From contig JAXLYP010000017.1 in the NCBI GenBank assembly GCA_046351395.1, forward strand, positions 193,508-246,456: a DNA stretch of 52,949 nt, in the 5' to 3' direction. The notes beneath the pieces were generated by a model that had not been told where the DNA came from, did not search any database, and saw nothing but the letters and a program-made list of their open reading frames with translations. This DNA is from Polyangiaceae bacterium. GTDB taxonomy: Bacteria > Myxococcota_A > Polyangia > Polyangiales > Polyangiaceae. The position numbers and the translations under genes are program-made. Positions 7,704 to 43,845 of the stretch are shown here, piece after piece; the stretch's first letter is position 1; every line of letters starts with the position of its first letter.

Positions 7704-10515
7704 GCGGAGTGTCTCGTGGTGCAGAAGGGAACAGCGACGTCGAGGACGGAATCGAGGCTCGGCGCGTCACCTCCGGCGCCTCGGGTTCGGCCGCGCGATC
7801 GGGAGCTCCAGCGAGGAGGGCGCGGGCGCGCGAGAAGTCGGTCACGTCCGGCTCCTCCCTACAGAGCTCCTCGATCCGCGGGAGCTGACTCGTCATCCCG
7901 AGCTCCGCCGCGTGATAGGCAGCGAACTTGCGGAGGATCGCGCTCGAGCTCCCCAGCATCTGCGCGATCGCCGTCTCGTAGTCGAGATCCACGGATGCAT
8001 GGAACTCCTTCCCGCGCGTGCGTCGCTCGACGTCGTCGACGTCATCGACGAGCCCGATGACGGCGTCGCGCAGCGGATTCTTGAGGACGATGTGGATGAG
8101 CTCGACGGCGGTCGCGCGGTGCTCCTTCCCGCCCCGCTCGATGCTCGTGAAGATCGCGTCGATCTCCTCGTTCGGGTTGAGCAGCGCCAGCAGCCGGAAC
8201 ACGCGACCCACCATGTGTCGCTGCTTGTCTCGCAGCAAATCCACGAGCAGGCCGTGCCCGACCGTCGCTCGGCGTGGGTCCTCCTCCCGCCCGCGCCGGA
8301 GCGCGACGAACCGATCGAAGGACCGGTAGGCGCGGGCGACCGTGCGCTGGATCTCCTCCCCGAGGAGGCGCTCGTCGAGGCGCGTCTCGGGCCGCGCGAC
8401 GACGATCTGTCCGAGCGCGAGGATCGAGCGATACCGCACCATCCCATCGGGCTCCTGTCCGAGGTTCGCGAGCAGGATCTCGGGCGCCTCGGGCGAGTCG
8501 ATGTCCGCGAAGAGGCTCGGCACGAGCCTCCGCACCGCCCGCGGGCGATCCCGATCGCGGAGCGCGCGGACGATCGCGCCCGCGCCCGCGGGGCCCGCGG
8601 CGCTCAGCGCGAGGCGGACGTCCGCGCCCACCTGACTGTCTGCGAGCAGGTCGACCAGGGTGTTCGCGGACGTCTCGGTCGCGAGCCCGCCGAGCGCCGC
8701 GATCGCCGCGCGGCGGACGTCGAGCTCGCGCGCGCGCGTGAGCTCGACGATCTCGGGCTCGAAGCGGGTCGCCTTGCGCCAGCCGACGACCTCGGCCAGG
8801 AGGCGCCGGCTCTCCACGCTGCCCTCCGAGACGATCCGCCCGAGCTCGTGGTGAGCCTCTTCCGCCTCCATCATGGAGAACGCAGCCATCGTCGTGAGGA
8901 TCGCCGCGCGGATGTCCGGCGAGGTCTCCCGCGCGAGCTGCTCTCTCCACCGCGTCGCGTCCGGCGCGAGCACCGCGCGAGCGGCCATCGCCTCGGCGCG
9001 GACGCGGATGGAGGGGTGGCGATCCAAGTGGGTGAGCGCGTGGAGCGCGACCTTCCGACCGCGCACGCCGAAGATCCGGAGCGCGGTCACGACGACGGTC
9101 TCCGACGGGTGATACAGGATGAGCCCCGGGATGACGTGGGCCTTCCCCTCCCGATCCAAGATCCGTAGCGAAGACACGACCGTGCTCTCCGCTTCGCTCT
9201 CGAGCGACTCGAGGAGCGACTCGAGGGAGGCCATGTCGAGCCGCATGAGCGCGCCCGCGAGCCGCCTCCGACCGGACGCGAGGGCGTCCTTGAAGAGCTG
9301 CGCGTAGTCGCCTCGGAGCCATGTCGCGAGGACGACCGCGCCCGCGGCCGTGACGACGAGGAGGACGGCGAGCCATCGCGGTGGCAGCTCGGTCGCCACC
9401 CCGACGAGGATGACGACCGAGCCCACCATCTGGGCGCCCCGTTGACCGAGCGCGTCCATGAAGCTCTTGGCGACCGTCCGCGGACCGTCCTCGAGGGGCA
9501 CGAGCAGGAGCTCCGCGGCCGTGCGGTGCACGCTGAAGCGCATGCTGCCGTCCACGGCCTTCGTGATCACGGCGGGCGCGAGCGTGCCCGTGATCGCGAC
9601 GCCGAGGCCCCCGGCGACGAGCCCGAACGGCAGCACCGCGAACACCAACGGGAGAGGCAAGCGCGCGACGAGCGATCGGACCGCGAACACCTGAACGCAG
9701 ACCGAGATCACGTTCAGGACCACGTTCACGCGGCCGAACACGCGCGCGAGCTGGTCGTGCGCGAAGTGGGCGGTGATCTGCGACTTGAAGATGAAGTCCG
9801 AGATCGTGACGGCGATCGTGATGAGGCCGCAGACCGCGACCACCCGTCGGATGTAGGGGTGGCGAAGGGCCGTGCCGAGGCGCTCGCCGAGCGTCCCGTC
9901 GCGCCCGTCGTGCTCGCCGTCGCGCGCGCGTTCGTCGAGGCCGCCGCTCGAGAACAGCATCGGCATCCAGGCGGCGCCGAAGAACAGCACGCCCGCGAAG
10001 AGGGAGAGGTTCGCCGGCGCGACCCACGTGACGAGCCCGACCGCGCCGCTGCCGAGGATCGCGCCGAGCCCGGCTCCGAGCCCGATCATCCCGTAGAGCC
10101 GTTTGGCCTGGCGAATCGAGAAGAGCCCTCCAACGAGGGACCAGAAATGGATGAGGACAATCGTCGAGAGGACGCCCGACCAGATGTAGAAGACATAGAG
10201 CCCGACCTCACCCAGGCTCGGCAGCGCACGGGAGAGCGCGATCGTCCCGAGCGACGAGGCGACCGTCCAGCCGATCAGCACGCGCCGCGGCGTCGTGCGC
10301 CGGAACACGGCTTGGGCGCGCGTCGCGACGAGCGTCGCGGCGGCGAGCGCGACGTACACCCAAGGGAGTCGGCTCGTCGGGATGTGGGCGAGGAACATCG
10401 CGTCGCGCGTCGCCTCGAGGATGCTGTGGCCGGCCACGAAGACGAACAGGAAGACAAAGGCGGTGATCGCATCCCGCCGCTCCGATCGCCGCACCGGGAA
10501 GAGCCGCCGCAGCAC
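7693..10515 (-). CDS. TLC-family (ATP/ADP-translocase-like, Npt-type) membrane transporter fused to a C-terminal HEAT-repeat domain
   Basis: 940 aa. The N-terminal ~430 aa are multi-TM and carry the family-typical block HFWSLVGGLFSIRQAKRLYGMIGLGAGLGAILGS (compare Rickettsia Tlc FWQFANQIT..AKRFYSMFGL). The C-terminal half has HEAT-like repeats (…RRAAIAALGGLATETSANTLVDLLAD…). GTG start is 1 nt after the upstream stop. Confidence 0.8.
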   Translation of the reverse strand: MLRRLFPVRRSERRDAITAFVFLFVFVAGHSILEATRDAMFLAHIPTSRLPWVYVALAAATLVATRAQAVFRRTTPRRVLIGWTVASSLGTIALSRALPSLGEVGLYVFYIWSGVLSTIVLIHFWSLVGGLFSIRQAKRLYGMIGLGAGLGAILGSGAVGLVTWVAPANLSLFAGVLFFGAAWMPMLFSSGGLDERARDGEHDGRDGTLGERLGTALRHPYIRRVVAVCGLITIAVTISDFIFKSQITAHFAHDQLARVFGRVNVVLNVISVCVQVFAVRSLVARLPLPLVFAVLPFGLVAGGLGVAITGTLAPAVITKAVDGSMRFSVHRTAAELLLVPLEDGPRTVAKSFMDALGQRGAQMVGSVVILVGVATELPPRWLAVLLVVTAAGAVVLATWLRGDYAQLFKDALASGRRRLAGALMRLDMASLESLLESLESEAESTVVSSLRILDREGKAHVIPGLILYHPSETVVVTALRIFGVRGRKVALHALTHLDRHPSIRVRAEAMAARAVLAPDATRWREQLARETSPDIRAAILTTMAAFSMMEAEEAHHELGRIVSEGSVESRRLLAEVVGWRKATRFEPEIVELTRARELDVRRAAIAALGGLATETSANTLVDLLADSQVGADVRLALSAAGPAGAGAIVRALRDRDRPRAVRRLVPSLFADIDSPEAPEILLANLGQEPDGMVRYRSILALGQIVVARPETRLDERLLGEEIQRTVARAYRSFDRFVALRRGREEDPRRATVGHGLLVDLLRDKQRHMVGRVFRLLALLNPNEEIDAIFTSIERGGKEHRATAVELIHIVLKNPLRDAVIGLVDDVDDVERRTRGKEFHASVDLDYETAIAQMLGSSSAILRKFAAYHAAELGMTSQLPRIEELCREEPDVTDFSRARALLAGAPDRAAEPEAPEVTRRASIPSSTSLFPSAPRDTPHAS

Positions 10516-10516
10516 G

Positions 10517-11965
10517 TCAGAACCCCGTCGTCCCGCCGACGAGGAACCGGACGCTCTCGGGCTCGCCGCCCTCCGCGAACGGCTTCGTCCCGAAGCCCAA
10601 GAGGAGGTTCAACGCGTGGTCACGGTGATTCGGCGATTGGAACCCCCCGACGAACGAGAACCGGAGTCGCTCGAGTTCGAAGTCCTCGAAGTCGCGCCCG
10701 AACACGTTCCCCACCTGCGCGCGGAGCGTGGCGTCGACGAACGACCAGATGGGCCAGGTGTACGTGACGCTCGCCGCGGCGGACGTCTCGCCGAGGAGGC
10801 GCCCGGGGGTGAAGCCGAGGAGGGGCTCGTCGTCGGGCACGCGATCGGTCCGACCGCTCCCGATGAGCTCCGTGAACGGCACGCGCGCCGTGCTCGAGAA
10901 GGGCTCGATCGCGCGGACGTCCACGAGGAGCCCGAGCACGCGCCGCGTCCCCGTGACGTCGATGAACCCGCCCACGGACCCGCCCACCTGCGCCCACTCG
11001 ACGTGCGACCCGACGTCGCTCCCGAGCTCGGCGTGCGCGTCGAGCCCGACCCCGGAGCCCGGCCCTGGGCGCGGCTGTCGCGAGTCGAGCACGACGCGCC
11101 CACCGACCTTCACCGCGGTGTATCCGGCGAACCCGTCGGGGAGGGGATAGAGCCCTCGAGCGACCGCGCGGGAGATGGGCAGCGTAGGACACTCGTGTGG
11201 CCATACCGGGCAGCTCTCGTCGGAGAACGAGTGGTGCCGGACGACGGCCCAAGCCTCCACGAAATTGGCCTTTCGCGGCTCCACGTGGGTCCGAATGCCG
11301 CCTCCGACCGAGCGCTGCTCGAACCTCGACTCGTCCGCGTAGCGAGACCGGTACCCCACACCGTAGAACAGGTAGTCGGCGCGGACGACCCCGTCCGCCT
11401 CGAGCTGCAGGTTGGAGCGCACGCGGTGAGAGCCGTCGGGTTCGACCTCGACGTCGAGCGGGACGCGGTCGACCACGCGAGCTGCGAAGTACCTCTCGCC
11501 CCCCGTCGCGACCGACGCGCGGAGTTGATTGTCTGTCACGAGGAAGTCGTCGTAGAAGTGGTAGAGGCCGACGCTCGGACGAAAACCGAACTCGTAGAAC
11601 GCCGTCGGGATGAGGCCCACGTTGTGGTGAGGGCCGAACGTGAAGAAGTCGGTCACCTTCGCCACGATGCCCTCGCGGTCGATCACCGTGGTGATCGCGC
11701 CGAGGGGGCGCCGGATGACGTAGTCCGAGACCACGTAGAGCGGCGCGAAGAGGACGCGGGGGATCCAGAGCGCGCCCTCCGCCGCGGTCGTCTCGCGCGG
11801 TCTGCCCTCGTAGTCCTGCGGTGGGCGCTTCTCTCCGGGCGGCCGGGATGGATCCTCGGGGAGCACGGCGGGGTGCTCGGGGACGTCCCCCCGCGCCGGG
11901 GGCGCCGCCGCGAGGGCAGCGCCGAACGCGAAGACCATGGCACCGAGCGCCTTGGGCGAGTTCAT
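10517..11965 (-). CDS. Outer-membrane beta-barrel protein (paralog of 23156-24616)
   Basis: Signal peptide MNSPKALGAMVFAFGAALAAAPPARG. Alternating beta-strand patterns. C-terminal ...RFLVGGTTGF* (terminal Phe OMP signature). The start overlaps the upstream stop (ATGA). Confidence 0.75.
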   Translation of the reverse strand: MNSPKALGAMVFAFGAALAAAPPARGDVPEHPAVLPEDPSRPPGEKRPPQDYEGRPRETTAAEGALWIPRVLFAPLYVVSDYVIRRPLGAITTVIDREGIVAKVTDFFTFGPHHNVGLIPTAFYEFGFRPSVGLYHFYDDFLVTDNQLRASVATGGERYFAARVVDRVPLDVEVEPDGSHRVRSNLQLEADGVVRADYLFYGVGYRSRYADESRFEQRSVGGGIRTHVEPRKANFVEAWAVVRHHSFSDESCPVWPHECPTLPISRAVARGLYPLPDGFAGYTAVKVGGRVVLDSRQPRPGPGSGVGLDAHAELGSDVGSHVEWAQVGGSVGGFIDVTGTRRVLGLLVDVRAIEPFSSTARVPFTELIGSGRTDRVPDDEPLLGFTPGRLLGETSAAASVTYTWPIWSFVDATLRAQVGNVFGRDFEDFELERLRFSFVGGFQSPNHRDHALNLLLGFGTKPFAEGGEPESVRFLVGGTTGF

Positions 11966-13779
11966 TGGAGGGCCGCGCCCGGCTCGTCGGGCCTCTGGAT
12001 GGCGACCATCTTGAAGTGGGAGGACGCCCCGAGATCGTACAAATGAACGCGCAGCGGACCCCGCGCCGCGCCGTTCGAGACGTCGAGCACCGCGTATCGA
12101 AGGGGGTGATCGTCGGGCAGCGAGCGGTCGTCCACGACGCGCGGTAGATCCACGCAGACCGTCGCATCGTCGCCGAGGCTGACGGGGAGGGCCTTTCGCT
12201 GGTCGAGGTCGAGCCCCGTCCGGAGCTCGGCGGCGTACGTGAACCGCGTCCTCGGCCAGGTGGTCGTCTTGTGCGCGAGATCGGTCGCGCAGACGCGGTC
12301 GCCCTCGACGGTCACGTCCGCCAGCGGGGATACGACGCTGAAATACCGCGTGAGGATCTCGTCCCTTCGTTGGATGAGTGTCCGCGTGAGGAACTCCGTC
12401 GCGCGAGGGTCCGTGTAGTCGCCGACCCGCACCGCGGCCGCGATGTTCGCGTCGGTGAAGCGCGACAGGATGCGCGCCGCCCACGCGCCGTCCTCCTCCG
12501 TCATGCGAGCGAACGCGGGGTTCGGGTAGCCGCCCTTCCAGTCCTCGGGCACGAAGTCCGGCCTGAAATAGTCGAACATCGGGAGCTCGGTGTTCGCGAC
12601 GGGCCGGTCCCATGGGCGCTCGAACGAGCCGAGCGTCAGGAGGTCGATCGCCACGTCCTCCGGATCGAAGTAGTAGCTGTGGTTGATCCTCCGGTTCCAG
12701 CTCTCCCATTGCCAATGGCTGCCAAAGCAGTCCCCGAGGTCGATGTACCAATGTGTCGTCCGCCCCGGAGAGGAGTCCTTCGACTCGGGGTCCACGGCGT
12801 CCCAGGTGGTCATCGTGTTTTGCTCGCGCGAATCGAAGTGCCCGAGCCACGCGGCCATGAGCCGCGCTCCGCGGAGATCCCTTCGGTCCTCGTGAGGGAT
12901 GATGTCGTTGGGATCGTCTTCTCGCGTCTCCTCGTACCGGAAGGGGCCGATCGCGCGTCCTGGGAGCCACCGCGACGCCACCATTCGTACGAGCCCACCT
13001 CGCTTCTGTGCGCTGTCGAGGATCGCCTGGAGCTTCCCGTCGTCGAACGGCATTTTGGTGCCCGTATTGTCTGCGTAATCGAGCCCGGGCTCGAGCCTGA
13101 GCCAGGACTTGTCGACGTAGACAATCGTGTCGCACGCGGTCCACCAGCCCGCGGCGTGGTAGAGCCTGGACGCGATGGATGTCGCCCCGGTCGCCTTCTC
13201 GCCTTCGCCCTCGGCGTCTGCCTTCAGCATGAACTTGCCGACGCCCTCGATCTCGACCCGAAAGCCCGGGTTCGCGCCGTTCGCCTTGCCCATGTCGACG
13301 CGCCAGGCGCCCGGTTCGTGCGGGGCCGTGGCGATCGTCTTGTGGCCGCAGCTCCCGCGCGTGATCTCCTCGTCGGTCATCGGCCTCACGCCGATGCGGT
13401 TCGTGAACCAGCTCGAGTCGGGCACCTCGTCGACCGCGTTCACGTTCCGCGCAGCGAAGCCGACGTCCGCGGCGAAGAACTTCACGATGGGCCGGAAGAT
13501 GGTCTTGTCGGCGACGTCCCATAGGAACGGGGACTCGTACTCTTCGGGCCGACAGAGTTGCTTCTTCGCGTCCTTCGGATCGGGGCGACACGGCACTCGG
13601 ACCGCCCGCAGATCCTCGTCGATCCAGACCGGGTCGCGGAGCGGGAACCGCCGGATGCCACCGCACCCCGCGACCGAGGTCGCCGCGCCGCTCGCCAGCG
13701 CCGCGCCGATCACGACTCGGCATGCGGCTCGCAGAATCTTTACGGCCCCCGCCTCGCGATGAGCCCACCGAATCGCCAT
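11962..13779 (-). CDS. Lipoprotein with atypical kinase-like (PKL/PI3K/CotH-like) signature
   Basis: Lipobox ATSVAGC. Candidate nucleotide-binding Lys (GKFMLKAD), catalytic-loop-like LMAAWLGHFDSREQNTM and DFG-like WYIDLGDCFG. 605 aa, non-repetitive, high GC3. Confidence 0.6.
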   Translation of the reverse strand: MAIRWAHREAGAVKILRAACRVVIGAALASGAATSVAGCGGIRRFPLRDPVWIDEDLRAVRVPCRPDPKDAKKQLCRPEEYESPFLWDVADKTIFRPIVKFFAADVGFAARNVNAVDEVPDSSWFTNRIGVRPMTDEEITRGSCGHKTIATAPHEPGAWRVDMGKANGANPGFRVEIEGVGKFMLKADAEGEGEKATGATSIASRLYHAAGWWTACDTIVYVDKSWLRLEPGLDYADNTGTKMPFDDGKLQAILDSAQKRGGLVRMVASRWLPGRAIGPFRYEETREDDPNDIIPHEDRRDLRGARLMAAWLGHFDSREQNTMTTWDAVDPESKDSSPGRTTHWYIDLGDCFGSHWQWESWNRRINHSYYFDPEDVAIDLLTLGSFERPWDRPVANTELPMFDYFRPDFVPEDWKGGYPNPAFARMTEEDGAWAARILSRFTDANIAAAVRVGDYTDPRATEFLTRTLIQRRDEILTRYFSVVSPLADVTVEGDRVCATDLAHKTTTWPRTRFTYAAELRTGLDLDQRKALPVSLGDDATVCVDLPRVVDDRSLPDDHPLRYAVLDVSNGAARGPLRVHLYDLGASSHFKMVAIQRPDEPGAALQ

Positions 13780-14649
13780 CCGATCGCCGTGCGCGCGGCC
13801 GAGCTCCTCGGCTCGAGTCCGCTGCTCGTGCTCGCGGGCGTGGGCGTGTTCTCGATCGGGCTCGTCCTCGTTCTCGTCGTCCTCGCGAGGTGGATGAGCG
13901 CGCGGGGCCTCGGCTGGCGGAAGGCCCTCTTTCGACGCGCCGCGCGCGCTGTCGGCGCCGCCCCGAGCGCGCGCGCGAGGCTCTCGCGGCTCGTCCGGCT
14001 CGAGTACGAGCTCGTCCACCTGGGACTTGGGCTCGCGCTCCTCGCCGGGCTGGTCGTGTTCGTGGCGCTCGCGGTCTCCGTCGTCGACGACGGCGCAGTC
14101 GCGGCGTTCGACGAGTCGCTCGCGCGTGCGGTCCACCGATCGACGCCGCCCGAGCTCGTGCGCGTCATGCTCGTCGCGACCTCGCTCGGCGGCGGTGAGG
14201 CCGTCCTCGTCGTCGCGGTGGTCGTCGCGGTGGGGCTCCTGGTGCGGCGGCGATGGCACCTCGCCATCGGCTGGATCACGGCGGAGGCGGGCGCGGGCCT
14301 CTTCAACGCGCTCCTCAAGTCGCTCTATCGGCGCGCGCGTCCCACGCTCGACGATCCGTTCACGAGCGCATCCGGGTGGAGCTTCCCGAGCGGACACTCC
14401 ATGGGGACGATCGTCACCGCTGGGATGCTCGCTTATGTGTTCTCCCGGTTCTACCCGCCGGGGTGGCCGCGCTTCGTGGCCGTCTTCCTCGCGACGCTGT
14501 GGACGCTCGTCATTGGGTTCAGCCGCGTGTGCCTCGGCGTCCACTACGCGAGCGACGTGCTCGGAGGGTTCGCCGCGGGCGCGGTGTGGCTCGTCGTTTG
14601 CGTTTCGGGCCTCGAGGTGGCGTTGCGCCCCAATCGCTCGGCCGTTTAG
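13759..14649 (+). CDS. PAP2 family membrane phosphatase (canonical motifs)
   Basis: KSLYRRARP (KX6RP), FPSGHS (PSGH), SRVCLGVHYASD (SRX5HX3D). Multiple TM helices. The ATG 13759 start would overlap the divergent gene's start by 21 nt; an alternative GTG lies ~13786. Confidence 0.85.
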   Translation: MSPPNRHPIAVRAAELLGSSPLLVLAGVGVFSIGLVLVLVVLARWMSARGLGWRKALFRRAARAVGAAPSARARLSRLVRLEYELVHLGLGLALLAGLVVFVALAVSVVDDGAVAAFDESLARAVHRSTPPELVRVMLVATSLGGGEAVLVVAVVVAVGLLVRRRWHLAIGWITAEAGAGLFNALLKSLYRRARPTLDDPFTSASGWSFPSGHSMGTIVTAGMLAYVFSRFYPPGWPRFVAVFLATLWTLVIGFSRVCLGVHYASDVLGGFAAGAVWLVVCVSGLEVALRPNRSAV

Positions 14650-14773: not shown

Positions 14774-15790
14774 ATGCCAACCGTCCTGTCGCAACCGCGT
14801 CGTACCGCGCCCGCATTCGCAGCACGTTCGATGTTCTTCGGTGTCTTGATCAATGGGATCGTCCCTTCGTCCGCGCTCGCAGATCCGCAAGTGGACACAG
14901 CGCCGAGCGCTCCGACGGAGAAGGCAACCGCCGCGCCCACGCCGCTCGCCACGAAGAGCGCCGCGGAGAAGAAGCCGGACTCGCTGGATTGGGATCCGCG
15001 TTGGCCGGAGGTGAAACCCTACGAGTACATCCTCACCGGTGTGTTCGCGCTCGCAGCGATCGGTGGACAGGCGATCCCCGGCGGCCCGAGGTGGACGGGG
15101 CACAACGCGTTCGACGACGCGGGCCGCGAGGCGTTGCTCTTGCCGGACTTCGAGGATCAGGAGCGCGCGAAGGACTTCAGCGACGTGGGCCTCGTGATCC
15201 TCGTGAACCAAGCGCTGATCGACAATCTCTTCGTCACGTGGTGGGCGCGTGATCACCCGAAGACCGCATGGCAGCTGTCCGTGATCGACACCGAGACGCT
15301 GGCGTTCAGTATCGGCGTGGACGCGCTCGTCGCCGGCGCGACGGGCCGCGAGCGCCCGTACGTCGAAGCGCTGTGCGATCAGGAGGACCACAAGAATCGC
15401 GGCTACTGCGACGGGAGCAACCGCTACCGAAGCTTCTTCAGCGGACACTCCACGGCCGCGTTCACCCTGGCGGGGCTCACGTGCATCCATCACGCGGAGC
15501 TCGGTATTTACGGCCACCCCGTCGCTGACGCGTTCGCGTGCGGCGGCGCGATGGCGACGGCGACGGGCGTCGCGCTCCTCCGTGTCGCCTCTGATCAGCA
15601 CGATCTCTCGGACGTGCTCGTCGGGGCAGTGTGGGGCACCGCGACCGGGGTCACGCTGCCGTGGCTCCTCCACTACCGGGGCGGGGCGAAGGTCGAAGAG
15701 AAGAAGCCGGACCCGCATGCCGCCGTCGAGGCCCCGCCGCCGGGCGTGGTCGTCACGCCGAGCGGCGCGTACGTCATGGGAGCGTTCTGA
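14774..15790 (+). CDS. Secreted PAP2-like phosphatase (paralog of 16722-17639)
   Basis: The N-terminus has RR followed by a hydrophobic signal (…QPRRTAPAFAARSMFFGVLINGIVPSSALA). Motifs GRERPY, FFSGHS, RVASDQHDLSD. Alternative start at ATG 14831. Confidence 0.75.
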   Translation: MPTVLSQPRRTAPAFAARSMFFGVLINGIVPSSALADPQVDTAPSAPTEKATAAPTPLATKSAAEKKPDSLDWDPRWPEVKPYEYILTGVFALAAIGGQAIPGGPRWTGHNAFDDAGREALLLPDFEDQERAKDFSDVGLVILVNQALIDNLFVTWWARDHPKTAWQLSVIDTETLAFSIGVDALVAGATGRERPYVEALCDQEDHKNRGYCDGSNRYRSFFSGHSTAAFTLAGLTCIHHAELGIYGHPVADAFACGGAMATATGVALLRVASDQHDLSDVLVGAVWGTATGVTLPWLLHYRGGAKVEEKKPDPHAAVEAPPPGVVVTPSGAYVMGAF

Positions 15791-15793
15791 GCG

Positions 15794-16690
15794 ATGGGGT
15801 CCTCGAGAGAACGCCGATGGAGCGTCGCCGCGCGATCGATCTTCGTGGTCGTGATCGCCGTTCTCACCCGAGAGGCGCGCGGTCAAGTGCTCGACCTCCC
15901 GGACGCGACGACGAACCCGACCGCGCCACCGCGGGACGTGGATCAGAAGCTCCCCTATTGGGAGAGAGGAGAGATCCGGCCATTCACGTCGGCGGTGTTC
16001 GACGTCGGCGGGTTCTTCGTGCGCCCCGAGTTGAACGTCGGCTACGGGCAGCCGCACTTCAACTGGATCGGCGCGGAGATCTTCAGCAAGCTCACGCTCG
16101 GCGGCGTGACGCTCGGAGCGGGCGTCCACGGTCAGATCCCGAACGTCGACGCGCGCCTCGGCGTGCGGTCGTTCCGGTCGGCGGATCAACGCCTGCTCCA
16201 GCGCAAGAACGTGTATCGGGAGTCGGACCCGACGATCCTCGATCAGCCCGCCTCGGCCTACGACAGCGTCGACGCGGATCTCGCGGTGAACGTCCGCGCG
16301 CTCGGAGGATCCGTCAGCTTGGAGACGCGCGCGCTCGCGCTCTTCCAGGTCCCCGACGGATATGACGTCTTCGAGGACGTGTTCCGCGTCGTGGTCCGAC
16401 CGCCGCTCGTCTGGCAGGCGAAATTGACGTATGTCGTCTTCGCGGGCTGGGACGATCGCCTCGCGCTCGGGTTCACGACGGAGCTCCTCGGCGCTCCAGC
16501 GAGAGACAACCTCGTCTTCCGCGTCGGCCCGGTGCTCACCGTCGCGTTGACGGAGCACCTCCAGGCGATCGGCGGCGGCGCCTTCGCGATCCTGTACCAC
16601 GACGATCTCGGCCTCAGCGGGTCGGATCTCGGGCAGATCGGTCTGCGCTACCGTTGGGCGTCGGGAGAGCCTTACCCCGACTTCCCGTGA
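15794..16690 (+). CDS. Secreted protein, possibly beta-barrel; unknown function
   Basis: Starts 3 nt after the preceding stop. Signal-like SIFVVVIAVLTREARG. Alternating-residue strands (e.g. LALGFTTELLG, LVFRVGPVLTVAL). High GC3. Confidence 0.55.
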   Translation: MGSSRERRWSVAARSIFVVVIAVLTREARGQVLDLPDATTNPTAPPRDVDQKLPYWERGEIRPFTSAVFDVGGFFVRPELNVGYGQPHFNWIGAEIFSKLTLGGVTLGAGVHGQIPNVDARLGVRSFRSADQRLLQRKNVYRESDPTILDQPASAYDSVDADLAVNVRALGGSVSLETRALALFQVPDGYDVFEDVFRVVVRPPLVWQAKLTYVVFAGWDDRLALGFTTELLGAPARDNLVFRVGPVLTVALTEHLQAIGGGAFAILYHDDLGLSGSDLGQIGLRYRWASGEPYPDFP

Positions 16691-16721: not shown

Positions 16722-17639
16722 TCAGAACTGCCCGCCCCAGGAGAGCTGCACGGGCGGCCGCGCGGTGACGAGCGGCGCGGACGCCGCCGCGCTCGTGTTC
16801 GGGCCGTCGACGGTCTGCGTGTAGTGCAGGGCGAGGGGGACCGCGAGGCCTACCCCGTACCCGAAGAGGAAGCCGCTGATCGCGTCGCTCATCCAGTGCC
16901 GATCGGAGATGACGCGCATCCCGGCGATGGTGACGGCGAGGGCCGTCGAGCCGACGCACGCGACGACGTCGGGCGCGCCGCCCCCGTAGAGCGGGACATA
17001 GGCGTGGTGGGCGCACGTCAGCCCCGCGCCGACCGCGCTCATCGTCGCGTGACCGCTGAACCAGCTCGCGTTGACGCCGAAGGAGCCACAGTCGTACGCC
17101 CAGCCTTTGTCTGTTTGGCATCCGATCCCGGCTGGGCGCTCCCGCGCGGCGAGCCGGTGGTTCACGCGCATGACGAGATACGCGATCCCGTAGGCCTCGA
17201 GGTTCATCGCCGTCAGCTGCTGGAGCATATCGAGGTTCTCGTCGATCGCCGGGACGAGGACTCCATCGATGAGGACGGGGTAGGCGGCGCTCACGGCGAG
17301 CAAGACGTCGCTCGCGATCTGAATGCCGCGTCGATCCTTAAGCCGCGGCATCGCGACGGCGTCGCGGGCGATCTCGTCGAACAGGATGGGCCCGATCCAC
17401 CGGGGCTCGATGGGCTGTTCGGTCCCGAACTCGATGATGCCCGCGCCGGTGATCGACAGGGCGGTGAGCGTGTACTCGCCCCACACGACGCGCGGGTGGG
17501 ACTCGTCCCAGTGCAGGCGGTGCTCGTCCTTGGCCTGCGCCGCTGCGCGCTCGCATGGCGCGAAAGCTGCGAGCGCCGCGCCCAGAAGGATCGCGTGTTG
17601 GTGTCTGTGCAGCGAGGAGTTCACCAGGGGATCCGTCAC
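16722..17639 (-). CDS. Secreted PAP2-like phosphatase (paralog of 14774-15790)
   Basis: The GTG start overlaps the upstream stop (GTGA). Motifs ARERPA, WFSGHA, RVISDRHWMSD. Ends ...QLSWGGQF*. Confidence 0.75.
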   Translation of the reverse strand: MTDPLVNSSLHRHQHAILLGAALAAFAPCERAAAQAKDEHRLHWDESHPRVVWGEYTLTALSITGAGIIEFGTEQPIEPRWIGPILFDEIARDAVAMPRLKDRRGIQIASDVLLAVSAAYPVLIDGVLVPAIDENLDMLQQLTAMNLEAYGIAYLVMRVNHRLAARERPAGIGCQTDKGWAYDCGSFGVNASWFSGHATMSAVGAGLTCAHHAYVPLYGGGAPDVVACVGSTALAVTIAGMRVISDRHWMSDAISGFLFGYGVGLAVPLALHYTQTVDGPNTSAAASAPLVTARPPVQLSWGGQF

Positions 17640-18190
17640 TCGGGTGAGGGGGTCGACGTCGAGGGCTTGGGCGGTTCGGGCGGGGGCGGCGGTGTGGGCT
17701 CTCGCAGCGAGGGCACCGCGGACGCGCTCGATCCTGGCGTGGGCTGCTCCTTCGTCCCCCCCTTGTCGATCGGCGGGCCCTTCTCCGTCCCGTTCGGATC
17801 CTGTTCGGAGGGCTCGAGGTGCTCCTTCGCGTCACGGACAAAGCCGCTCGTGGGGACGTATTTGTAGGTCGCCTTTTGTCCACAGCCGCTGACGCCGAAC
17901 GTCGTCGCGTCGAGCTCGGTGACGTCGAGCGCCGTGTTGCCGCAGGTGAGGTCGAACGCCGCGCGCTCGCGCAGCGAGACCCAGTCGTCCTTCACGGGGT
18001 CGTGGATGATGACGTCCTTCTTCCCGCAGCCCGTGACGATCCGGATCGGGCCGGCGTGGTTCGTCTCGATGTCGTCCTCCTCGCACTCGAGCGTGTGCCG
18101 AGCCTTCGGCATGATCGATGGCCAGAAGCACGCCCCGATCAGCGTCCCCGAGACCACGGAGAGTGTGACGGCAAGCCTCGATGCGCTCAT
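17636..18190 (-). CDS. Lipoprotein with Pro-rich C-terminal tail, unknown function
   Basis: ATG 18190. Lipobox SGTLIGAC. Cys-containing globular part, then a ...TPPPPPEPPKPSTSTPSPE* tail. Confidence 0.65.
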   Translation of the reverse strand: MSASRLAVTLSVVSGTLIGACFWPSIMPKARHTLECEEDDIETNHAGPIRIVTGCGKKDVIIHDPVKDDWVSLRERAAFDLTCGNTALDVTELDATTFGVSGCGQKATYKYVPTSGFVRDAKEHLEPSEQDPNGTEKGPPIDKGGTKEQPTPGSSASAVPSLREPTPPPPPEPPKPSTSTPSPE

Positions 18191-18280
18191 GAGCTCCGGC
18201 CTCGTCCGAGGGACGTGAAGGTGCGCGGAGGGACCGCGCCGTGAACGAGCGCCCGTGGGGCGTTCATCTCGAAGAGCCAC

Positions 18281-18956
18281 TCACGAGCGCGATCCAAGGA
18301 CCGGACCATCGCCGAGGTCGTCCAAGTGGGAGGTGTCGGCGAGGCGCGTGGGGGTCCAGGCGAGCCCCGCGCTGTCGAGCCGGAATAGACTGGCCACGGG
18401 GCATGGAATGTCCTCCTCCGTGCCCGTGAGACCCTTCACGATCCCGAGGATGGCGACCGCGTGCGTCACGAGAAGGAGTGATCCGTCGTAGGTCGCGGCG
18501 AGGGCACGAGCGGTGAGGGCCGAGCGCGCGAACGCCTCCTCGATCGTCTCGAGCGATGGGGGCACCGAGCGGCGTGTGGCTCCGGTCCACCTCGACCCGC
18601 TCGAGGCGCGCTCGGAGCTCGTCCGCGGACAGCATGTCTCCTAGCCCCGGCCCCCAGTCGGGCCGCTGGAGCTCCGCGAGCCCCGGCTCGAGCGCCACGC
18701 CGCCTCCGATCACGCGCGCGACCTCGGCGGCGGTCTGGACGCAGCGGAGATAGGGGGACGACACGATCCGCGTGATGCCCGACGTCCCGAGGCGTGTCGC
18801 CACGGCTCGGGCCTCCTCGAGGCCGCGCGCGGACAATCCGGGATCGTGGGGCCGCGGGGCGGTGCGCCCCCACTCGAGGTCACTGAAATCGGCGCGGTCA
18901 CCGTGCCGAACCAGCCAAAGCGTTCGGGCGCGGACGGGCTCTGTGGCTGAGGTCAT
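18281..18956 (-). pseudogene. Histidine phosphatase (phosphoglycerate-mutase-like) family gene split by a frameshift
   Basis: The N-terminal half (ATG 18956) has LWLVRHGDRADF (RHG motif). The C-terminal half, in another frame (18281..18565), has ETIEEAFARSALTARALAATYDGSLLLVTHAVAILG. The frames meet at a G5/C5 run (18558-18562). Confidence 0.7.
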
Positions 18957-19543
18957 CGACGCTCCACGGGCACACAGCGTGCTTGGTTGGTATTCGATGC
19001 ACGTCCTCCGCCATGCGGTGATGGGTGCGAGCATGGCGCTCGCCGGCTGCGCCTCGTCGCCCATGCCCGCGTGGCCCGTGTCGACCCCTGCGGAGCTCTG
19101 TCAGGACCCGACCCTCGGCCCCTCCGACTTCTGCATGCCCGCCGCGCGCATCGAGGTGTGGCTCCGCGAGGGCGACTTTCGGATCACGAACGTGGCGTTC
19201 TCGAGCTCGGGCGTGACGCGCCCCTACAAACTCAGGCTCGAGCTCGCGTCGGGGCTGACCATCAACGCGAAGTTCAAGCGCGCGCCGGACGATCTCGAGG
19301 CGTTCAACAACAGCCCGCGGCGCGAGCTCGCCGCCTATGAGATCCAGAAGCTGTTCTTGGACCCGGACGACTACGTCGTCCCTCCGACGGTGCTCGCCTG
19401 CATCCCGGCGCGCACCGAGCTGATGCCGGAGCTCGAGCCGCACCCGAGGGCGACGTGCGCGATCGGCGTACTCGCGTATTGGGTGGAGGGCCTCACGGAC
19501 CAGGGGGTCGTCGACCCCGCGCGGTGGGCGGCGGACGCGGGGT

Positions 19544-19551
19544 ACCGCGAC
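19544..19551. repeat. Target-site duplication (left copy), ACCGCGAC
   Basis: An identical 8-mer directly flanks both IS ends (19544-19551 and 21071-21078). Confidence 0.85.
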
Positions 19552-21070
19552 GTACCCGTTCACCCGTCGGACGGGATCAGCGTGGGGACTTCCAGTTGAG
19601 CTGGGTCGCAAGCTGCAAGGAGGAAGCCGAGGATCGACCTTCGCTGGAGGCGAAGCGAATGGATCACGGTCATGACTCGCTGGGCGAACAGGCATCCTCG
19701 CTCGCTCTGGGAGCCGTAAGAGACCTTGCGCCAAAGCACGAACGGCGCAGCGCGCGCTCGGCATGATTATCAGGGATCCACTTCAGGCTCGAAGGCGAAC
19801 GTGAGGAGGGCGGCCTTGTGTTCGAGTATGTCGAGGCAGGAGCCGGAGACGCCGCGCAGGCGCAGCCCCGCGCCGCGTTCGAGGAGTCCCTCGAACGCCA
19901 TCTGCGCTGGTCGCCATCCTCTGGTACTTGGCGCGTGAGGGTGCCGTCCCGCACCTTGTGCCAGGCGGCAGCACAAGGTGAGAGAGCAGAGAAGGTCCTC
20001 CCCGAGTTGGCGTCCCGCGTCCTTGCGTTCGGAGAAGGCGACGAACTTCCTGATGAGGTGCGCCCAGCAGATCTGCCGCCGCCCTGATGGCCCAGAAGCC
20101 GAACTGCGAGCCTCGGTCCGTCACCAAGGATCCCGGAGAGGGCCCATGAGCGCGGCGATTGTCCGCGACAAGCATCGGCGGTGACGAAGAACACAGCGAC
20201 GGACCGCGTTGCGATCGTCCAGAGCGCGGCATACAGGCCGGCGACTCGCCAGGTGCTTCCGTCCACGTGCTTCACGGGGTGCGCGCGGACGTAGCAGGCC
20301 GCGGCATCCACCGGGGCAGCGATAGCGTCGTTGATCCGCTCCTCGGCCTCGCTGAGGGCGCCGAGCGAGACTGGGATGCCGAAGATCTCGGAGAGGTACT
20401 CCCGGCAACTGTCGCGCCACTGTCCGCGCGCCGAGGAACAGCCGATGAACGCGAGCAGCCGGGGACCGAACATGTGGCTCGGGACGCTGCCGGCAGACTC
20501 GCCCACGTCGTCTTCCCGCAGTCCTTGCAACAGGCCCCGCCCATGACGATCTCGTGAACGTCCGGCTTGATCCTTCGGGGATGTCGACGACCTGATGCAG
20601 GCGCGGGTCGATCCCCTCCGCCGCGAGATTCCGTCCGCCGCATCCTCGACATCTCTTCGGCGCCAGCTTCGTCCGACGGGTCACCTTCTCGGGCGGGAAC
20701 AGCACGCGGGTGTTCGGCTTGTGTCCGGGCTGGCCGCCGCGACTTCGACCGGTCGGCTTCTTCTCGGGTCGAGTCCCAGGTAGATCGGTCGACGGAGGCT
20801 TGCCCGACTCCTCGAGTTCTGCCCCAGCTGCTGCTCGAGGTCGGCGACTCGCACCTTGAGCTGCGCGATCTCCGCGTCCTGCCCGCGATGATCGGTGTCG
20901 CGCTCCGCGACCATGGCAAGCAGCGCCGCGACCTGGGCTTCCAACTTCGCCAGACGCTTGCCGACCGAGGTCACCGACCCACTCGATCATGCGGCGATCC
21001 TCGTGTCGATCCCCGATCGCGTATGATCACATATGATCATGTATGGCTGCTCGACCCGGTGAACGGGTAC
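19552..21070 (-). mobile_element. IS66-family insertion sequence (single-ORF type), 1519 bp, transposase degenerate
   Basis: Perfect 13-bp terminal inverted repeats GTACCCGTTCACC (19552-19564; reverse complement at 21058-21070). The 8-bp TSD is typical of IS66. Internal IS66 transposase motifs are present. Confidence 0.8.
19560..20974 (-). pseudogene. IS66-family transposase, multiply frameshifted
   Basis: Family-typical segments are spread over all three frames: leucine-zipper LAKLEAQVAALLAMV…LEQQLGQNS; GKPPSTD…GGQPGHKPNTR…CRGCGG; FGPRLLAFIG…IFGIPVSLGALSEAE…HVDGSTW; LVTDRGSQF; QICWAHLIRKF; PDNHAERALRR; FVLWRKVSYGSQSERG. Confidence 0.7.
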
Positions 21071-21078
21071 ACCGCGAC
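21071..21078. repeat. Target-site duplication (right copy), ACCGCGAC
   Basis: See the left copy. Confidence 0.85.
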
Positions 21079-21719
21079 AACCTCGGGAACTTGAACGTGC
21101 TGACGGCGCTCATCGGTCACCAAGACGACATTGGAGTGAACTTCTACCGGTCGAAGGACGCGGCGCGCCCGCGGCTATTGTCTGTCGACAATGGGCTCGC
21201 GTTCGGCGCGATGGGAGACAATCCCATTCGGTTCTTCAGCAGCGCATGGAGCGACGTGCGAGTCCCGCTCCTGCCTTCGAAGACGGTGGACAGGCTCGGC
21301 TCGGTCGACCGGGCGCGCCTCGAGCCCCTCGGCGTGGTCGCGCAGATGCGCCTCGAGGGCGGCGCGTTCCATCCCATCCCACGGACGCCGACGCTCGATC
21401 CGAACCAGGCCGTGCGCTGGAACGGGGACGACGTCCAGCTCGGGCTCACCGCCGAGGAGATCACGGACGTCGATGTCCGGCTGGCACGGCTCCTCGGCGC
21501 GATCGACTCCGAGGAGGTCCAGCGCGGTCGTCCCCGCGAATCGAAGTGATCGCTCGCTTCGAGGGGAGATCGCTGCCGACGATCGACGTCGCCGAGGAGG
21601 GCGGTGCGCTCGCCACCTCGGCGTGGGTCGAAAGTGCCTCGACTTGGCACCCAAATGCCACATCGAGCCGCCCTGCGAGCCCTCCTCGGGCTGGTGCGCG
21701 AATCGCATGAGCACCAAGG

Positions 21720-23159
21720 ATGAGCAACGCGCCGCGACGATCGTCGAGTCCACCCGATCCCAAAGAGGTCGCCCGGCGCTCCCTCGTCGAACGAGCGCTC
21801 GGGGTGATCACCGAGGTGAGGGCAGGCGAGGGGGGGACCGCACTCCTCATGACGCTCAATGTCTTTCTGCTGCTCACCGCATACTATCTCATCAAGCCGG
21901 TCCGTGAGGGCCTCATCGGGAGCGTGAAGCACGGCCCCGAGTACAAGAGCTACATGGGGGGCGCGGTCGCGCTCGCGCTCTTCGCCATCGTCCCGCTCTA
22001 CGGGATGCTCGCCGCGAGGCTGAAGCGGAACGTGCTCATCTCGAGCGTCTCGCTCTTCTTCGTCGCGAACCTCGTCGGCTTCTGGATGCTCGGCCGCCTC
22101 CCCTGGGTCGCGACCGAGACGGGGGCGACGGTCTATGCGCTCGCGTTCCTCCTCTGGGTGGGCGTGTTCAACCTCATGATCGTCGCGCAGTTCTGGGCGT
22201 TCGCCGCCGACGTGTACACCGACGAGCAGGGGAAGCGGTTGTTCGCGCTCATCGGTCTGGGCGCGTCCGTCGGCGCGGTGATGGGGAGCCTGGTCATGAA
22301 CCGCGTCGTGACCGAGCTCGGCACGGAGCACATGATGCTCGTCGCCGCCGTGACGCTCGCGCTCGCGACGGCGGTGACGCTGCTCATCCATCGGCGCGAG
22401 TCCCGGCGGCCGCGGGCGCCGGACCCGGAGAAGGAGCGGAAACAGCGCGAGGAGAAGGAGGCGAAGCAGAGCAGTCAGGGCGCGTTCTCGCTCGTGCTCC
22501 ACGACCGGTATTTGCTGCTCATCGCGGCGTTCACCGTGCTCTTCCAGATCGTGAACACCAATGGCGAGTTCATCCTCTCGAGCCTCGTGGCGGACGCGTC
22601 GCGCGCCGTGACCGAGACGCGAGAGGAGCAGAAGGCGTGGATCGCCTCGTACTACGGGAGCTTCTTTCTCTGGGTGAACATCGCGGGCGTGGCGATCCAG
22701 ACGTTCCTCGTCTCGCGGATCGTGAAGTGGGGCGGGCTCAAGGTCGGCCTCCTCATCTTCCCCGTCGTCGCGCTCATCAGCGAGGCGGCCATCGCGGTCG
22801 TCCCGGTGCTCCTCCTCGTTCGGATCGGCAAGACGGCGGAGAACTCGCTCGACTATTCGCTCAACAACACGCTCCGCAACGCCCTCTGGCTCCCCACGAC
22901 GACGCGCGCGAAGTACGTCGCGAAGCAGGCGATCGACAGCTTCGTGTCGCGCGTGGGCGACATGGGGTCGGCGCTCGCGATCTTCATCCTCATCGACGCG
23001 CTCCACTTGACCGTGCGAGCGGTCGCGACGCTCAACGCGTGCCTCGTCCTCGCTTGGATCTACGTGTCGATCGAGATCGTCCGCGAGAACGGCAAGCTCA
23101 CCGAGGACGCGAAGGGCAAAGCGCTTTCACGGCTGGAGGCGGCGGGGGCGAGCGCGTGA
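21720..23159 (+). CDS. TLC-family (ATP/ADP-translocase-like, Npt-type) membrane transporter
   Basis: 479 aa, multi-TM. LLMTLNVFLLLTAYYLIKPVREG; signature block QFWAFAADVYTDEQGKRLFALIGLGASVGAVMGS. An upstream ATG at 21707 in another frame (MSTKDEQRAATIVEST) leaves the true start uncertain. Confidence 0.8.
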   Translation: MSNAPRRSSSPPDPKEVARRSLVERALGVITEVRAGEGGTALLMTLNVFLLLTAYYLIKPVREGLIGSVKHGPEYKSYMGGAVALALFAIVPLYGMLAARLKRNVLISSVSLFFVANLVGFWMLGRLPWVATETGATVYALAFLLWVGVFNLMIVAQFWAFAADVYTDEQGKRLFALIGLGASVGAVMGSLVMNRVVTELGTEHMMLVAAVTLALATAVTLLIHRRESRRPRAPDPEKERKQREEKEAKQSSQGAFSLVLHDRYLLLIAAFTVLFQIVNTNGEFILSSLVADASRAVTETREEQKAWIASYYGSFFLWVNIAGVAIQTFLVSRIVKWGGLKVGLLIFPVVALISEAAIAVVPVLLLVRIGKTAENSLDYSLNNTLRNALWLPTTTRAKYVAKQAIDSFVSRVGDMGSALAIFILIDALHLTVRAVATLNACLVLAWIYVSIEIVRENGKLTEDAKGKALSRLEAAGASA

Positions 23160-24616
23160 GGACACCGGGGGCGAGCCTCACCCTCGTCCTCGTGTGCGCG
23201 CTCGCGGGCAGGTCCGCGACGGCGCGCGCGGACGGCGCGAGCCCCCCCGCGCCGCCGCCGCACCCGTCGACGCTCCCAGAGGACGCGCGCCGCGCCCCGG
23301 GGGAGAAGCGCCCGCTGCAAGAGTACGAGGGGCGCCCGCGCGAGACCACGACCGCGGAGGACGCCCTCTGGGTCCCACGCGTCCTCCTGTTCCCCGCGTA
23401 CCTCGTCTCGGAGTTCGTGGTTCGGAGGCCGCTCGGCGCGATCGACACCGCGCTCGAGACGGGCTCGACGGGCGGCCGGCTCATCGACGTGTTCACGTTC
23501 GGACCGCGCCACAACGCCGGTTTGGTCCCGACCGCGTTCTACGACTTCGGGTTCCGTCCGAGCGCGGGGCTCTACCTCTTCTACGACGACTTCCTCGCGA
23601 CAGACAATCAGCTCCGCGCGGCGTTCGCGACCGGCGGAGAGCGGTATTTCAGGGCGCGGGTGGTGGACCGAATCCCCCTTCACGTCGTCCGGGGCGAGGA
23701 CGGCGAGCACGAGGTCAGGGCGAACCTCCAGCTCGAGCTCGCTGGGCTCGCGCGGCCCGACCATCGGTTCTACGGCCTCGGCTTCGGATCGAAGAGCGCG
23801 CACGGATCGGAGTTCGAACAGAGATCGGTCGGGGGAGGAGTCCGCTTCCGCGCGGAGCCCTGGAGGTGGTCCTTCCTCGAGTCTTGGGTGCTCTATCGGC
23901 ACCACGACTTCTCGGATGGGGGGTGCGACGCACGCCCGTCGGACTGTGATCACCCGCCGATCTCATGGGCCATCGAGAGGGGCTGGTACGCGGCGCCAGT
24001 GGGCTTCGACGGATACCAGACAATCAAAGTCGGCGCGCGAGCGGTGGTGGACACGCGCCCGGATCGACCCGCGCCGGGATCGGGCGCGGGCTCGGAGATC
24101 CGCTTGGAGCTGACGAACGACACGCGCGGCGGGGAGTGGGCGGAGGGGGGCGCCACCGTGGGCGGCTTCCTCGATCTCACCGGGACGCGGAGGGTCCTCG
24201 AGCTGACGCTCGACGTGCGCGCCCTCGAGCCGCTCTCGTCGGGAACGGCGATCCCGTTCACCGAGCTCGTCGGCGCGGCCCGCATGGATGGAATCCTCGA
24301 GGACGGCGTGCTGCGCGGGTTCATCGCGGGTCGCCTGCTCGGAGAGAGCTCCGTGGTGGCCTCGCTCGGGTATTCGTGGCCCATCTGGGCCTGGGTCGAC
24401 GCCACTCTGCAAGCCCAAGTCGGCAACGTGTTCGCGCACCGGCTCGCCGATTTCGCGCCGGAGCGGCTGCGGTTCTCGTTCGTCGGCGGCTTTCGATCAC
24501 CGAATCACCGGGACCACGCGCTCAACGTGCTGCTGGGGTTCGGGACCGAGCCGTTCGCCGACGGCGGCTCGCCGGAGAGCCTGCGGTTCCTCATCGGGGG
24601 CACGACCGGGTTCTAA
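23156..24616 (+). CDS. Outer-membrane beta-barrel protein (paralog of 10517-11965)
   Basis: The GTG start overlaps the TLC stop (GTGA). Signal peptide …LVLVCALAGRSATARA. Long collinear identity blocks with the paralog (FTFGPRHNAGLVPTAFYDFGFRPSAGLYLFYDDFLATDNQLRA; RLRFSFVGGFRSPNHRDHALNVLLGFGTEPFADGG). Ends GGTTGF*. Confidence 0.8.
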   Translation: MRTPGASLTLVLVCALAGRSATARADGASPPAPPPHPSTLPEDARRAPGEKRPLQEYEGRPRETTTAEDALWVPRVLLFPAYLVSEFVVRRPLGAIDTALETGSTGGRLIDVFTFGPRHNAGLVPTAFYDFGFRPSAGLYLFYDDFLATDNQLRAAFATGGERYFRARVVDRIPLHVVRGEDGEHEVRANLQLELAGLARPDHRFYGLGFGSKSAHGSEFEQRSVGGGVRFRAEPWRWSFLESWVLYRHHDFSDGGCDARPSDCDHPPISWAIERGWYAAPVGFDGYQTIKVGARAVVDTRPDRPAPGSGAGSEIRLELTNDTRGGEWAEGGATVGGFLDLTGTRRVLELTLDVRALEPLSSGTAIPFTELVGAARMDGILEDGVLRGFIAGRLLGESSVVASLGYSWPIWAWVDATLQAQVGNVFAHRLADFAPERLRFSFVGGFRSPNHRDHALNVLLGFGTEPFADGGSPESLRFLIGGTTGF

Positions 24617-24653
24617 CGACGAGGGCGCCGGGGTACTCTCCGCGGTCACGCCG

Positions 24654-42376: not shown

Positions 42377-42384
42377 GCGCGGTT

Positions 42385-43820: not shown

Positions 43821-43845
43821 GTTCACAATAGTGAACCACGTTCAC
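43811..43845. promoter_or_regulatory. Two adjacent palindromes (putative TetR operators) overlapping the tetR start
   Basis: TGTGAATCATGTTCACA (43811-43827) and GTGAACCACGTTCAC (43831-43845). Both have GTGAA(C)-N-(G)TTCAC symmetry. Confidence 0.55.

Follow-up and report, generated by a model that had tools for sequence, protein, structure and literature searches.

Proteins of the NTT/TLC family are nucleotide antiporters. Genes for two such transporters, for two lipoproteins with a predicted kinase fold and for two outer-membrane barrels are considered here in a stretch of 52,949 nucleotides (nt) from a Polyangiaceae bacterium (assembly GCA_046351395.1, contig JAXLYP010000017.1), the whole of which is called the window. 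The genes form two loci with phosphatase genes between them, and the lipoprotein gene of locus 2 is split by an insertion sequence (IS). The region of 6.8-24.6 kb is best read as one rearranged envelope cluster that includes these phosphatases, because the PAP2 phosphatase and a protein of 298 amino acids (aa) recur at barrel loci elsewhere and the histidine phosphatase pairs with the locus-2 lipoprotein (kinase B). With a probability of about 0.5, and as judged from sequence and gene linkage, ATP exported by the TLC/NTT transporters would fuel the lipoprotein kinases, the phosphatases would reverse the modification, and the barrel would be a partner of the locus-1 lipoprotein (kinase A).

In eukaryotes, the Fam20 kinases of the secretory pathway are supplied by ATP exchangers of the endoplasmic reticulum and Golgi. 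Fam20 together with its ATP exchanger is the closest functional analogy to the cluster, the likeness being one of fold and logic. Unlike the members of that system, the window proteins are bacterial lipoproteins without a Pfam Fam20 match, and the transporter is of the TLC/MFS rather than the SLC35 type. Among bacterial atypical kinases that act outside the cytoplasm, neither CtkA of Helicobacter pylori nor CotH of Bacillus is, to our knowledge, a lipoprotein or linked to a nucleotide transporter or an Omp85 partner; kinases A and B differ from them also in lacking detectable sequence homology to solved structures. We know of no periplasmic ATP-dependent kinase system described in bacteria. 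[quoted passage not shown]

The operon architecture of NTT-HEAT plus cNBD was described, with its function unknown, in free-living bacteria by Major, Embley and Williams (2017, PMC5381601). In that account the NTT-HEAT clade is placed within the NTT family, and the characterised TLC/NTT proteins all import nucleotides. The locus-1 transporter of the window resembles these systems (PMC5381601) in being an NTT with a C-terminal HEAT part, followed by a separate cyclic-nucleotide-binding gene. It differs in sitting among lipoprotein kinases and a barrel, whereas the sections of PMC5381601 on this architecture mention no kinase, Omp85 or phosphatase neighbours. The link of NTT-HEAT with a kinase is also seen in other lineages. 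Literature searches for periplasmic kinases, bacterial Fam20-like lipoproteins and NTT-HEAT partners yielded no description of the module. The cluster extends the known NTT-HEAT theme in a new combination.

The window has a G+C content of about 70%, and the real frames were chosen by third-position GC and then by translation. Both measures show the genes under study to be real. The main features are as follows.

18997..19551, plus strand: N-terminal part of kinase B (locus 2), including the left copy of the target duplication; signal peptide, lipobox ALAGC, beta-3 lysine K92
19544..19551: target-site duplication of 8 bp (ACCGCGAC), left copy
19552..21070, minus strand: IS66-family insertion sequence, 1519 bp; terminal inverted repeats GTACCCGTTCACC; transposase frameshifted
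21071..21078: target-site duplication of 8 bp (ACCGCGAC), right copy
21079..21549, plus strand: C-terminal part of kinase B; catalytic loop HQDDIGVN, metal-binding motif DNG
21720..23159, plus strand: short MFS transporter of TLC/NTT type (479 aa), HEAT domain absent
23156..24616, plus strand: OMP2, outer-membrane barrel of predicted Omp85 type, 486 aa; GTGA overlap with the transporter gene, LRGF motif, C-terminal Phe
11962..13779, minus strand: kinase A, locus-1 lipoprotein, intact, 605 aa; kinase fold and C-terminal beta-sandwich
10517..11965, minus strand: OMP1, barrel of predicted Omp85 type, 482 aa; ATGA overlap with the kinase A gene
7693..10515, minus strand: NTT-HEAT fusion transporter, 940 aa; membrane part at about residues 1-430, HEAT repeats C-terminal
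6822..7703, minus strand: cyclic-nucleotide-binding protein, last gene of the locus-1 operon

Locus 1 runs on the minus strand in the order kinase A, OMP1, NTT-HEAT and the cyclic-nucleotide-binding gene. Its junctions (first an ATGA overlap, then a spacer of 1 nt, then an overlap of 11 nt) are so tight that the four genes are taken as one tightly coupled operon. In locus 2, on the plus strand, kinase B is followed by the short TLC gene and OMP2, whose GTG start at 23156 overlaps the TGA stop of the transporter gene (GCGCGTGAGG); translational coupling is thus found within both loci. NCBI lists the exact proteins of both barrels, encoded on a 246-kb contig in a metagenome-assembled genome of Polyangiaceae, under the hypothetical proteins U0414_27390 and U0414_27325. 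The original prediction, made for locus 2, had placed there a lipoprotein gene, a shorter TLC gene without the HEAT domain and a GTGA-coupled barrel paralogous to that at 10517-11965, with an order different from that of locus 1. All of this holds, at the coordinates given: the three genes are supported by third-position GC and translation, the transporter by Pfam as well, and the orders are kinase-transporter-barrel on the plus strand and kinase-barrel-transporter on the minus strand.

Putative lipoprotein kinases and the linked transporters

Kinases A and B have a predicted Fam20/PI4KII/CtkA/HipA-like kinase fold and are two different families. The bilobal fold of the PI3/4K-Fam20-HipA-CotH group is recognised in both lipoproteins, as the word kinase-like in the original prediction had implied, so that they are not unrelated in fold; kinase A has an additional C-terminal beta-sandwich. 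The beta-3 Lys, the HxDxxxxN loop and the Asp of the DxG motif are kept in 95-100% of about 120 homologs per family. For kinase A, the residues K186, H314, D316, N321 and D347 are conserved in 121/121 sequences, and for kinase B the corresponding counts are 114/118 (K92), 117/118 (D201), 116/118 (N206) and 118/118 (D222). The lipobox of kinase A is VAGC, its cysteine C39 being conserved in 119/121 sequences, and the family has six more invariant cysteines. Among the relatives of kinase B, the N-terminus is hydrophobic in 104/120, with a cysteine just after it in most of the N-termini listed. The lipoprotein calls were made from the lipobox, N-terminal hydrophobicity and conservation rather than with a dedicated signal-peptide predictor. 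Because the catalytic residues are conserved and a lipobox or signal sequence is present, both lipoproteins look like active kinases located outside the cytoplasm.

Comparison of kinase A with kinase B by BLASTP gave no significant similarity (E 0.9). A profile-profile comparison gave E 0.042 at a probability of 1%, aligning the hinge and the catalytic loop only. Recent paralogy of the two lipoproteins was rejected on these two results, and the shared fold group was retained. A Pfam search of both kinases at E up to 0.1 gave no match, including none to Fam20 (PF06702) or PI3_PI4_kinase (PF00454). Faint precomputed PF00454 matches exist for a few kinase B relatives. The kinase B profile found only marginal PI3K/ATM matches in the PDB, with Vps34 at E 0.064, and the sequence search of kinase A against solved structures found nothing.

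Both predicted inner-membrane transporters match the Pfam TLC family (PF03219; cut-off 21), the short TLC with 60 bits and NTT-HEAT with 32.3 bits. The short TLC additionally matches MFS_1, and its best matches in the PDB are chains of ADP,ATP carrier protein 1 (E 4.5e-10). Both proteins lie far below the trusted cut-off of TIGR00769 (55 bits against 387). A hydropathy scan detected about 10-13 hydrophobic segments within residues 15-400 of NTT-HEAT and 40-453 of the short TLC, in keeping with the polytopic membrane domain of about 11-12 helices expected of the family. HEAT_2 is matched by residues 563-636 of the NTT-HEAT protein (E 5.9e-12), and the gene that follows it, at 6822-7703, matches cNMP_binding (E 1e-19). 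The locus-1 transporter belongs with the NTT-HEAT(+cNBD) clade, and the same operon of NTT-HEAT and then cNBD occurs at two further loci (L088, L089). The two transporters are 23% identical over 334 aa (BLASTP, E 3e-15). They are two old subfamilies, forming separate orthologous groups, NTT-HEAT and short; both groups co-occur beside a single kinase at four loci (L174, L175, L003 and L046).

The kinase B family was followed further in a metagenome scan of 80 loci, mostly at 35-42% identity. A TLC-type gene is present at 20 of the 80. Among the 25 loci with 1.5 kb or more to either side, 10 have one within 3 kb; no barrel was found at any of the 80. At one locus (L129), a protein of 818 aa with a TLC-like N-terminal region, HEAT and cNBD overlaps the start of the kinase. 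Another (L174) is a tight operon of a lipoprotein with metallophosphoesterase-like motifs, NTT-HEAT, cNBD, the kinase and a short TLC. In a third (L173), the collinear genes are NTT-HEAT-cNBD, two for signalling, the kinase and Metallophos. Histidine phosphatase and kinase B stand as a pair in the window and also in L087, L092 and L093. Two sequence-unrelated kinase families are each linked to TLC/NTT transporters and phosphatases, and these phosphatases probably act outside the cytoplasm.

Two accessory genes were also seen with kinase-B-type genes of other lineages, at 1924-3282 and 9336-10076 of L174 and further at L159, L098, L132 and L093. The first encodes a lipoprotein of 452 aa with metallophosphoesterase-like motifs, the second a protein of 246 aa with a hydrophobic N-terminus (likely a signal peptide) and no Pfam match.

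Barrels, gene neighbourhoods and the IS66 insertion

The barrels are paralogous proteins of predicted Omp85 type without POTRA domains. OMP1 and OMP2 are 62% identical over 449 aa (BLASTP); the long conserved blocks quoted earlier for this pair occur in both translations, and both proteins end in GGTTGF with a C-terminal Phe. The loop-6-like motif is LRGF at residue 386 of OMP2 and a degenerate LLGF at residue 382 of OMP1, so that the loop-6 pattern (V/I)RG(F/Y) and the C-terminal aromatic beta-signal are both recognised. Neither window barrel alone matches Pfam, and there is one weak NCBIfam match (E 0.012). Among 27 aligned barrel relatives, 12 match PF01103 (Omp85; best E 1e-10), and the relatives carry database names of the BamA/TamA family. 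The POTRA models match none of the 27 family members, and the stretch conserved ahead of the barrel starts about 70 residues in, which is too short for POTRA repeats. The barrel profile found nothing useful among solved structures. As in the Omp85 partner systems (BamA, TamA/TamB, TpsB/TpsA), an RGF loop-6-like motif and a C-terminal Phe are present, and the barrel adjoins a partner protein with which it is translationally coupled. Unlike BamA, TamA and TpsB, the window's barrel has no POTRA domains and a short N-terminal region, and its partner is a lipoprotein kinase, not a secreted passenger or a TamB-like protein.

A neighbour-joining tree places OMP1 among orthologs of other organisms, with OMP2 as the basal branch of that clade. 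Since the barrels share a clade with the orthologs of other organisms, the barrel duplication is not recent. A subgroup of barrels that are 41-47% identical to OMP2 (L002, L004-L012) has no kinase and no TLC nearby, and L009 carries its barrel as a tandem pair. Three of these orphan loci (L002, L007, L010) were considered as a functional clue and set aside, their neighbours being unrelated.

A barrel scan with one genome per species gave 80 loci, nearly all from Polyangiaceae and other Myxococcota and a few under broader names. The neighbourhood counts refer to the 58 genome loci in which the barrel has 4 kb or more to either side. A gene of the kinase A type lies within 3 kb of the barrel in 43/58, in 39 of these within 500 bp, and a short TLC lies within 3 kb in 35/58. 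Both are present in 36/58 when the TLC is counted out to 6 kb, and neither stands beside the barrel in 10/58. Order and strand vary: barrel-kinase-TLC and TLC-barrel-kinase both occur, and Sorangium has the TLC on the minus, the barrel on the plus and the kinase on the minus strand. Neighbours that are kept while their order changes are the pattern expected of a functional module, and the functional module claimed in the original prediction agrees with this wide conservation of the TLC, barrel and kinase lipoprotein adjacency outside the window's genome. An NTT-HEAT type is found at a minority of barrel loci, with the cNBD gene after it; a kinase B homolog is found at none of the 80. On these counts, and with kinase B absent from the barrel loci, the pair of kinase A and barrel in other Polyangia usually has the short TLC of locus 2 as its partner. 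One locus (L001) has two barrel paralogs in tandem beside one kinase A, PAP2, the 298-aa protein and one short TLC. In a metagenome-assembled genome labelled Deltaproteobacteria (L175), kinase A converges on a run made up of two TLC genes and one for Omp85, and PAP2 adjoins.

Between the two loci of the window lie three PAP2 genes, two proteins of unknown type (298 aa and 214 aa) and a histidine phosphatase:

13558..14649, plus strand: PAP2 lipid-phosphate phosphatase; start codon uncertain, the open reading frame overlapping the start of kinase A on the opposite strand
14774..15790, plus strand: second PAP2 phosphatase; homologs at 15/80 barrel loci
15794..16690, plus strand: 298-aa protein without a Pfam match; recurs with the PAP2 gene at 9/80 barrel loci
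16722..17639, minus strand: third PAP2 phosphatase
18264..19064, minus strand: histidine phosphatase (His_Phos_1), divergent from kinase B; start codon uncertain

At 13558-13779, the longest frame of kinase A (minus) and that of the first PAP2 gene (plus) share about 220 nt. The NCBI version of kinase A has 583 aa and starts 22 codons later than the 605-aa frame. From the overlap and this later start, at least one start codon is mis-set.

The kinase B gene, with the inserted element included, spans 18997-21549 and has the lipobox ALAGC at its start. As originally predicted, it is split by an IS: the 1519-bp element at 19552-21070 is bounded by 13-bp perfect terminal inverted repeats GTACCCGTTCACC, which start with GTA, and is flanked by an 8-bp direct duplication ACCGCGAC. 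Deletion in silico of the element and of one ACCGCGAC copy restores an uninterrupted frame of 341 aa. The uninterrupted relative that had been suggested was also found: a 3.6-kb public metagenome contig (L087), syntenic with 16986-22337 of the window, carries an intact kinase B ortholog (69% identity) in which ACCGCGAC stands once at the corresponding position, i.e., an empty site, and a TLC ortholog (80% identity) downstream. The empty site shows that the insertion is recent and specific to the lineage of the window; kinase B is recently inactivated by the IS66 element.

The assignment to IS66 follows from the transposase, the inverted repeats and the 8-bp duplication. After repair of its frame, the minus-strand transposase matches DDE_Tnp_IS66 with 48 bits (cut-off 23.1) and also DUF6444; these two domains, the 8-bp target duplication and inverted repeats starting with GTA are features of the IS66 family. 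Canonical IS66 members typically have about 2.5 kb. In contrast to them, the window copy has 1519 bp and a single transposase frame, readable only after several frame shifts, and it has no tnpA or tnpB genes. Given this length, the multiple frame shifts and the missing tnpA/tnpB, the copy is decayed and probably immobile; alternatively, the sequence may be an assembly collapse of a repeat. No further IS copies were found within the window or any fetched locus. Promoter-like sites were not found around the IS or in the gap of 170 bp ahead of the TLC gene, nor was any convincing terminator. Kinase B is separated from the TLC gene by 170 bp in the window (21550-21719) and by 63 bp in L087 (2954-3016). 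The shorter gap hints at co-transcription in L087 and a possible polar effect of the IS in the window.

Predicted ATP export and its alternatives

PAP2 enzymes act at the periplasmic face, and we know of no source of ATP in the periplasm. The proposed mechanism draws on these two points, on the antiport of the NTT/TLC proteins and on the gene linkage. The TLC/NTT antiporters would exchange cytoplasmic ATP for periplasmic ADP. The exported ATP would supply the outer-membrane lipoprotein kinases, which would phosphorylate an envelope substrate (lipid, glycan or protein), and the phosphatases would reverse this envelope modification. The HEAT and cNBD parts may gate the export of ATP from the cytoplasmic side. 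The Omp85 barrel would be the outer-membrane partner or the target of kinase A, because it is tightly linked to this kinase only.

Several points weigh against ATP export. The textbook periplasm lacks ATP. The similarity to characterised nucleotide transporters is low (the TIGR00769 score given above), so another substrate is possible, and proteins of kinase fold can be pseudokinases or catalyse other ATP-dependent reactions. The Sorangium-type arrangement is common to 16/58 informative loci, which makes the counts phylogenetically redundant, and the orphan barrels (10/58) have neither partner. The closest intact relatives of kinase B besides L087 (L081-L086, 42-65% identity, five contexts viewed) adjoin neither a TLC gene nor a barrel, and the adjacency of kinase B in the window's lineage could therefore be recent.

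An extension of ATP export to free-living Gram-negatives in general is tentative, at slightly less than even odds. It would consist of cyclic-nucleotide-controlled ATP export by NTT/TLC proteins, including those of the NTT-HEAT-cNBD type, of outer-membrane lipoprotein kinases of Fam20/PI4KII-like fold using this ATP, and of periplasm-facing phosphatases closing the cycle. The repeated linkage of two secreted kinase families gives the NTT proteins a concrete, testable role, which is ATP export for envelope phosphorylation. If true, bacteria would have a counterpart to the secretory-pathway kinase system of eukaryotes. Both the role of NTT proteins in free-living bacteria and ATP-dependent chemistry in the periplasm become testable by this linkage. 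Cultivable Sorangium strains carry the module in complete genomes; in Sorangium cellulosum So ce56 the orthologs lie at about 8.74-8.76 Mb of the chromosome (L019). The IS-disrupted allele and the intact allele of the relative form a natural pair, the module without and with one of the kinases.

The transporters might instead work inward in a trans-envelope scavenging of nucleotides, the barrel admitting them, the kinase-fold lipoprotein binding or processing them and the TLC importing them as in intracellular bacteria. Kinase folds bind ATP, and lysed prey or decaying matter is a common food of myxobacteria. Import is also the direction of all characterised TLC/NTT proteins in the account of PMC5381601. 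This explanation is nevertheless unlikely: the full conservation of the metal-binding Asp and of the catalytic Asp and Asn favours phosphotransfer over binding alone, and the co-located phosphatases suit a modification cycle better. Moreover, Omp85 barrels are not known as solute channels, and the kinase-B-type systems of other lineages have no barrel.

Next stands a non-nucleotide cargo such as a lipid or a phosphorylated precursor, carried by TLC-like MFS proteins in a remodelling of envelope lipids without ATP export, the kinases using another phosphate donor or being pseudokinases. The weak match to the nucleotide-transporter model and the generic MFS_1 match of the short TLC are compatible with it, as are the PAP2 genes, which recur in the cluster and whose products work on lipid phosphates, on the outer side of the inner membrane. 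It too is held to be unlikely in view of the ADP,ATP carrier as the best solved-structure match of the short TLC and of the intact active-site residues of the kinases. The placement of the NTT-HEAT clade within the NTT family, as given in PMC5381601, speaks against it as well.

Kinase B could also be a chance neighbour of the TLC-barrel pair in the window's lineage, the IS hit then being irrelevant to the module. The unrelated neighbours of the homologs in L081-L086 and the lack of a barrel with kinase-B-type genes in the 80 metagenome loci fit such an explanation. L087, where the TLC ortholog (80% identity) likewise comes after kinase B, makes it improbable, and so do the TLC-type genes at 20/80 distant kinase B loci, a random neighbourhood presumably holding one far less often.

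A rearranged second copy of the whole lipoprotein/TLC/barrel triad, decaying after the IS hit, as claimed in the original prediction from finding all three families twice, is very improbable, for only the barrel proved duplicated: a TLC-family gene and a kinase-fold lipoprotein do occur in both loci, and of the suggested checks pairwise identity bore out paralogy for the barrels (62%) and phylogeny placed their duplication as not recent, but the transporters are related at the superfamily level only (23%, E 3e-15) and belong to separate orthologous groups that co-occur beside one kinase elsewhere, the lipoproteins are different families without significant similarity (E 0.9), a kinase B homolog is found at 0/80 barrel loci, L001 shows tandem barrel paralogs beside a single kinase A and a single short TLC, and the current data point toward neither the kinases nor the transporters being sister groups.

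Other genes of the region

A defence system was considered and rejected, because none of the six cluster proteins matched the PADLOC defence models. Directly downstream of OMP2, at about 24650-26060 on the plus strand, lies a gene for a proline-rich protein with repeats of the PPKAPSAPPPK type, which correspond to a 24-bp tandem repeat of 5.3 copies at 25297-25423. This gene is conserved in no related locus and was dropped as a member of the module. It is followed at 26076-27797 (plus strand) by a gene for a protein of 573 aa in which a zinc ribbon and a Hanks-type Ser/Thr kinase domain are joined to an FGE-sulfatase domain at the C-terminus. In the last part of the window (42000-52949), the GC skew is 0.11 to 0.17 over 42-48 kb and about -0.11 past 48 kb, the cumulative GC skew having its maximum near 48 kb.

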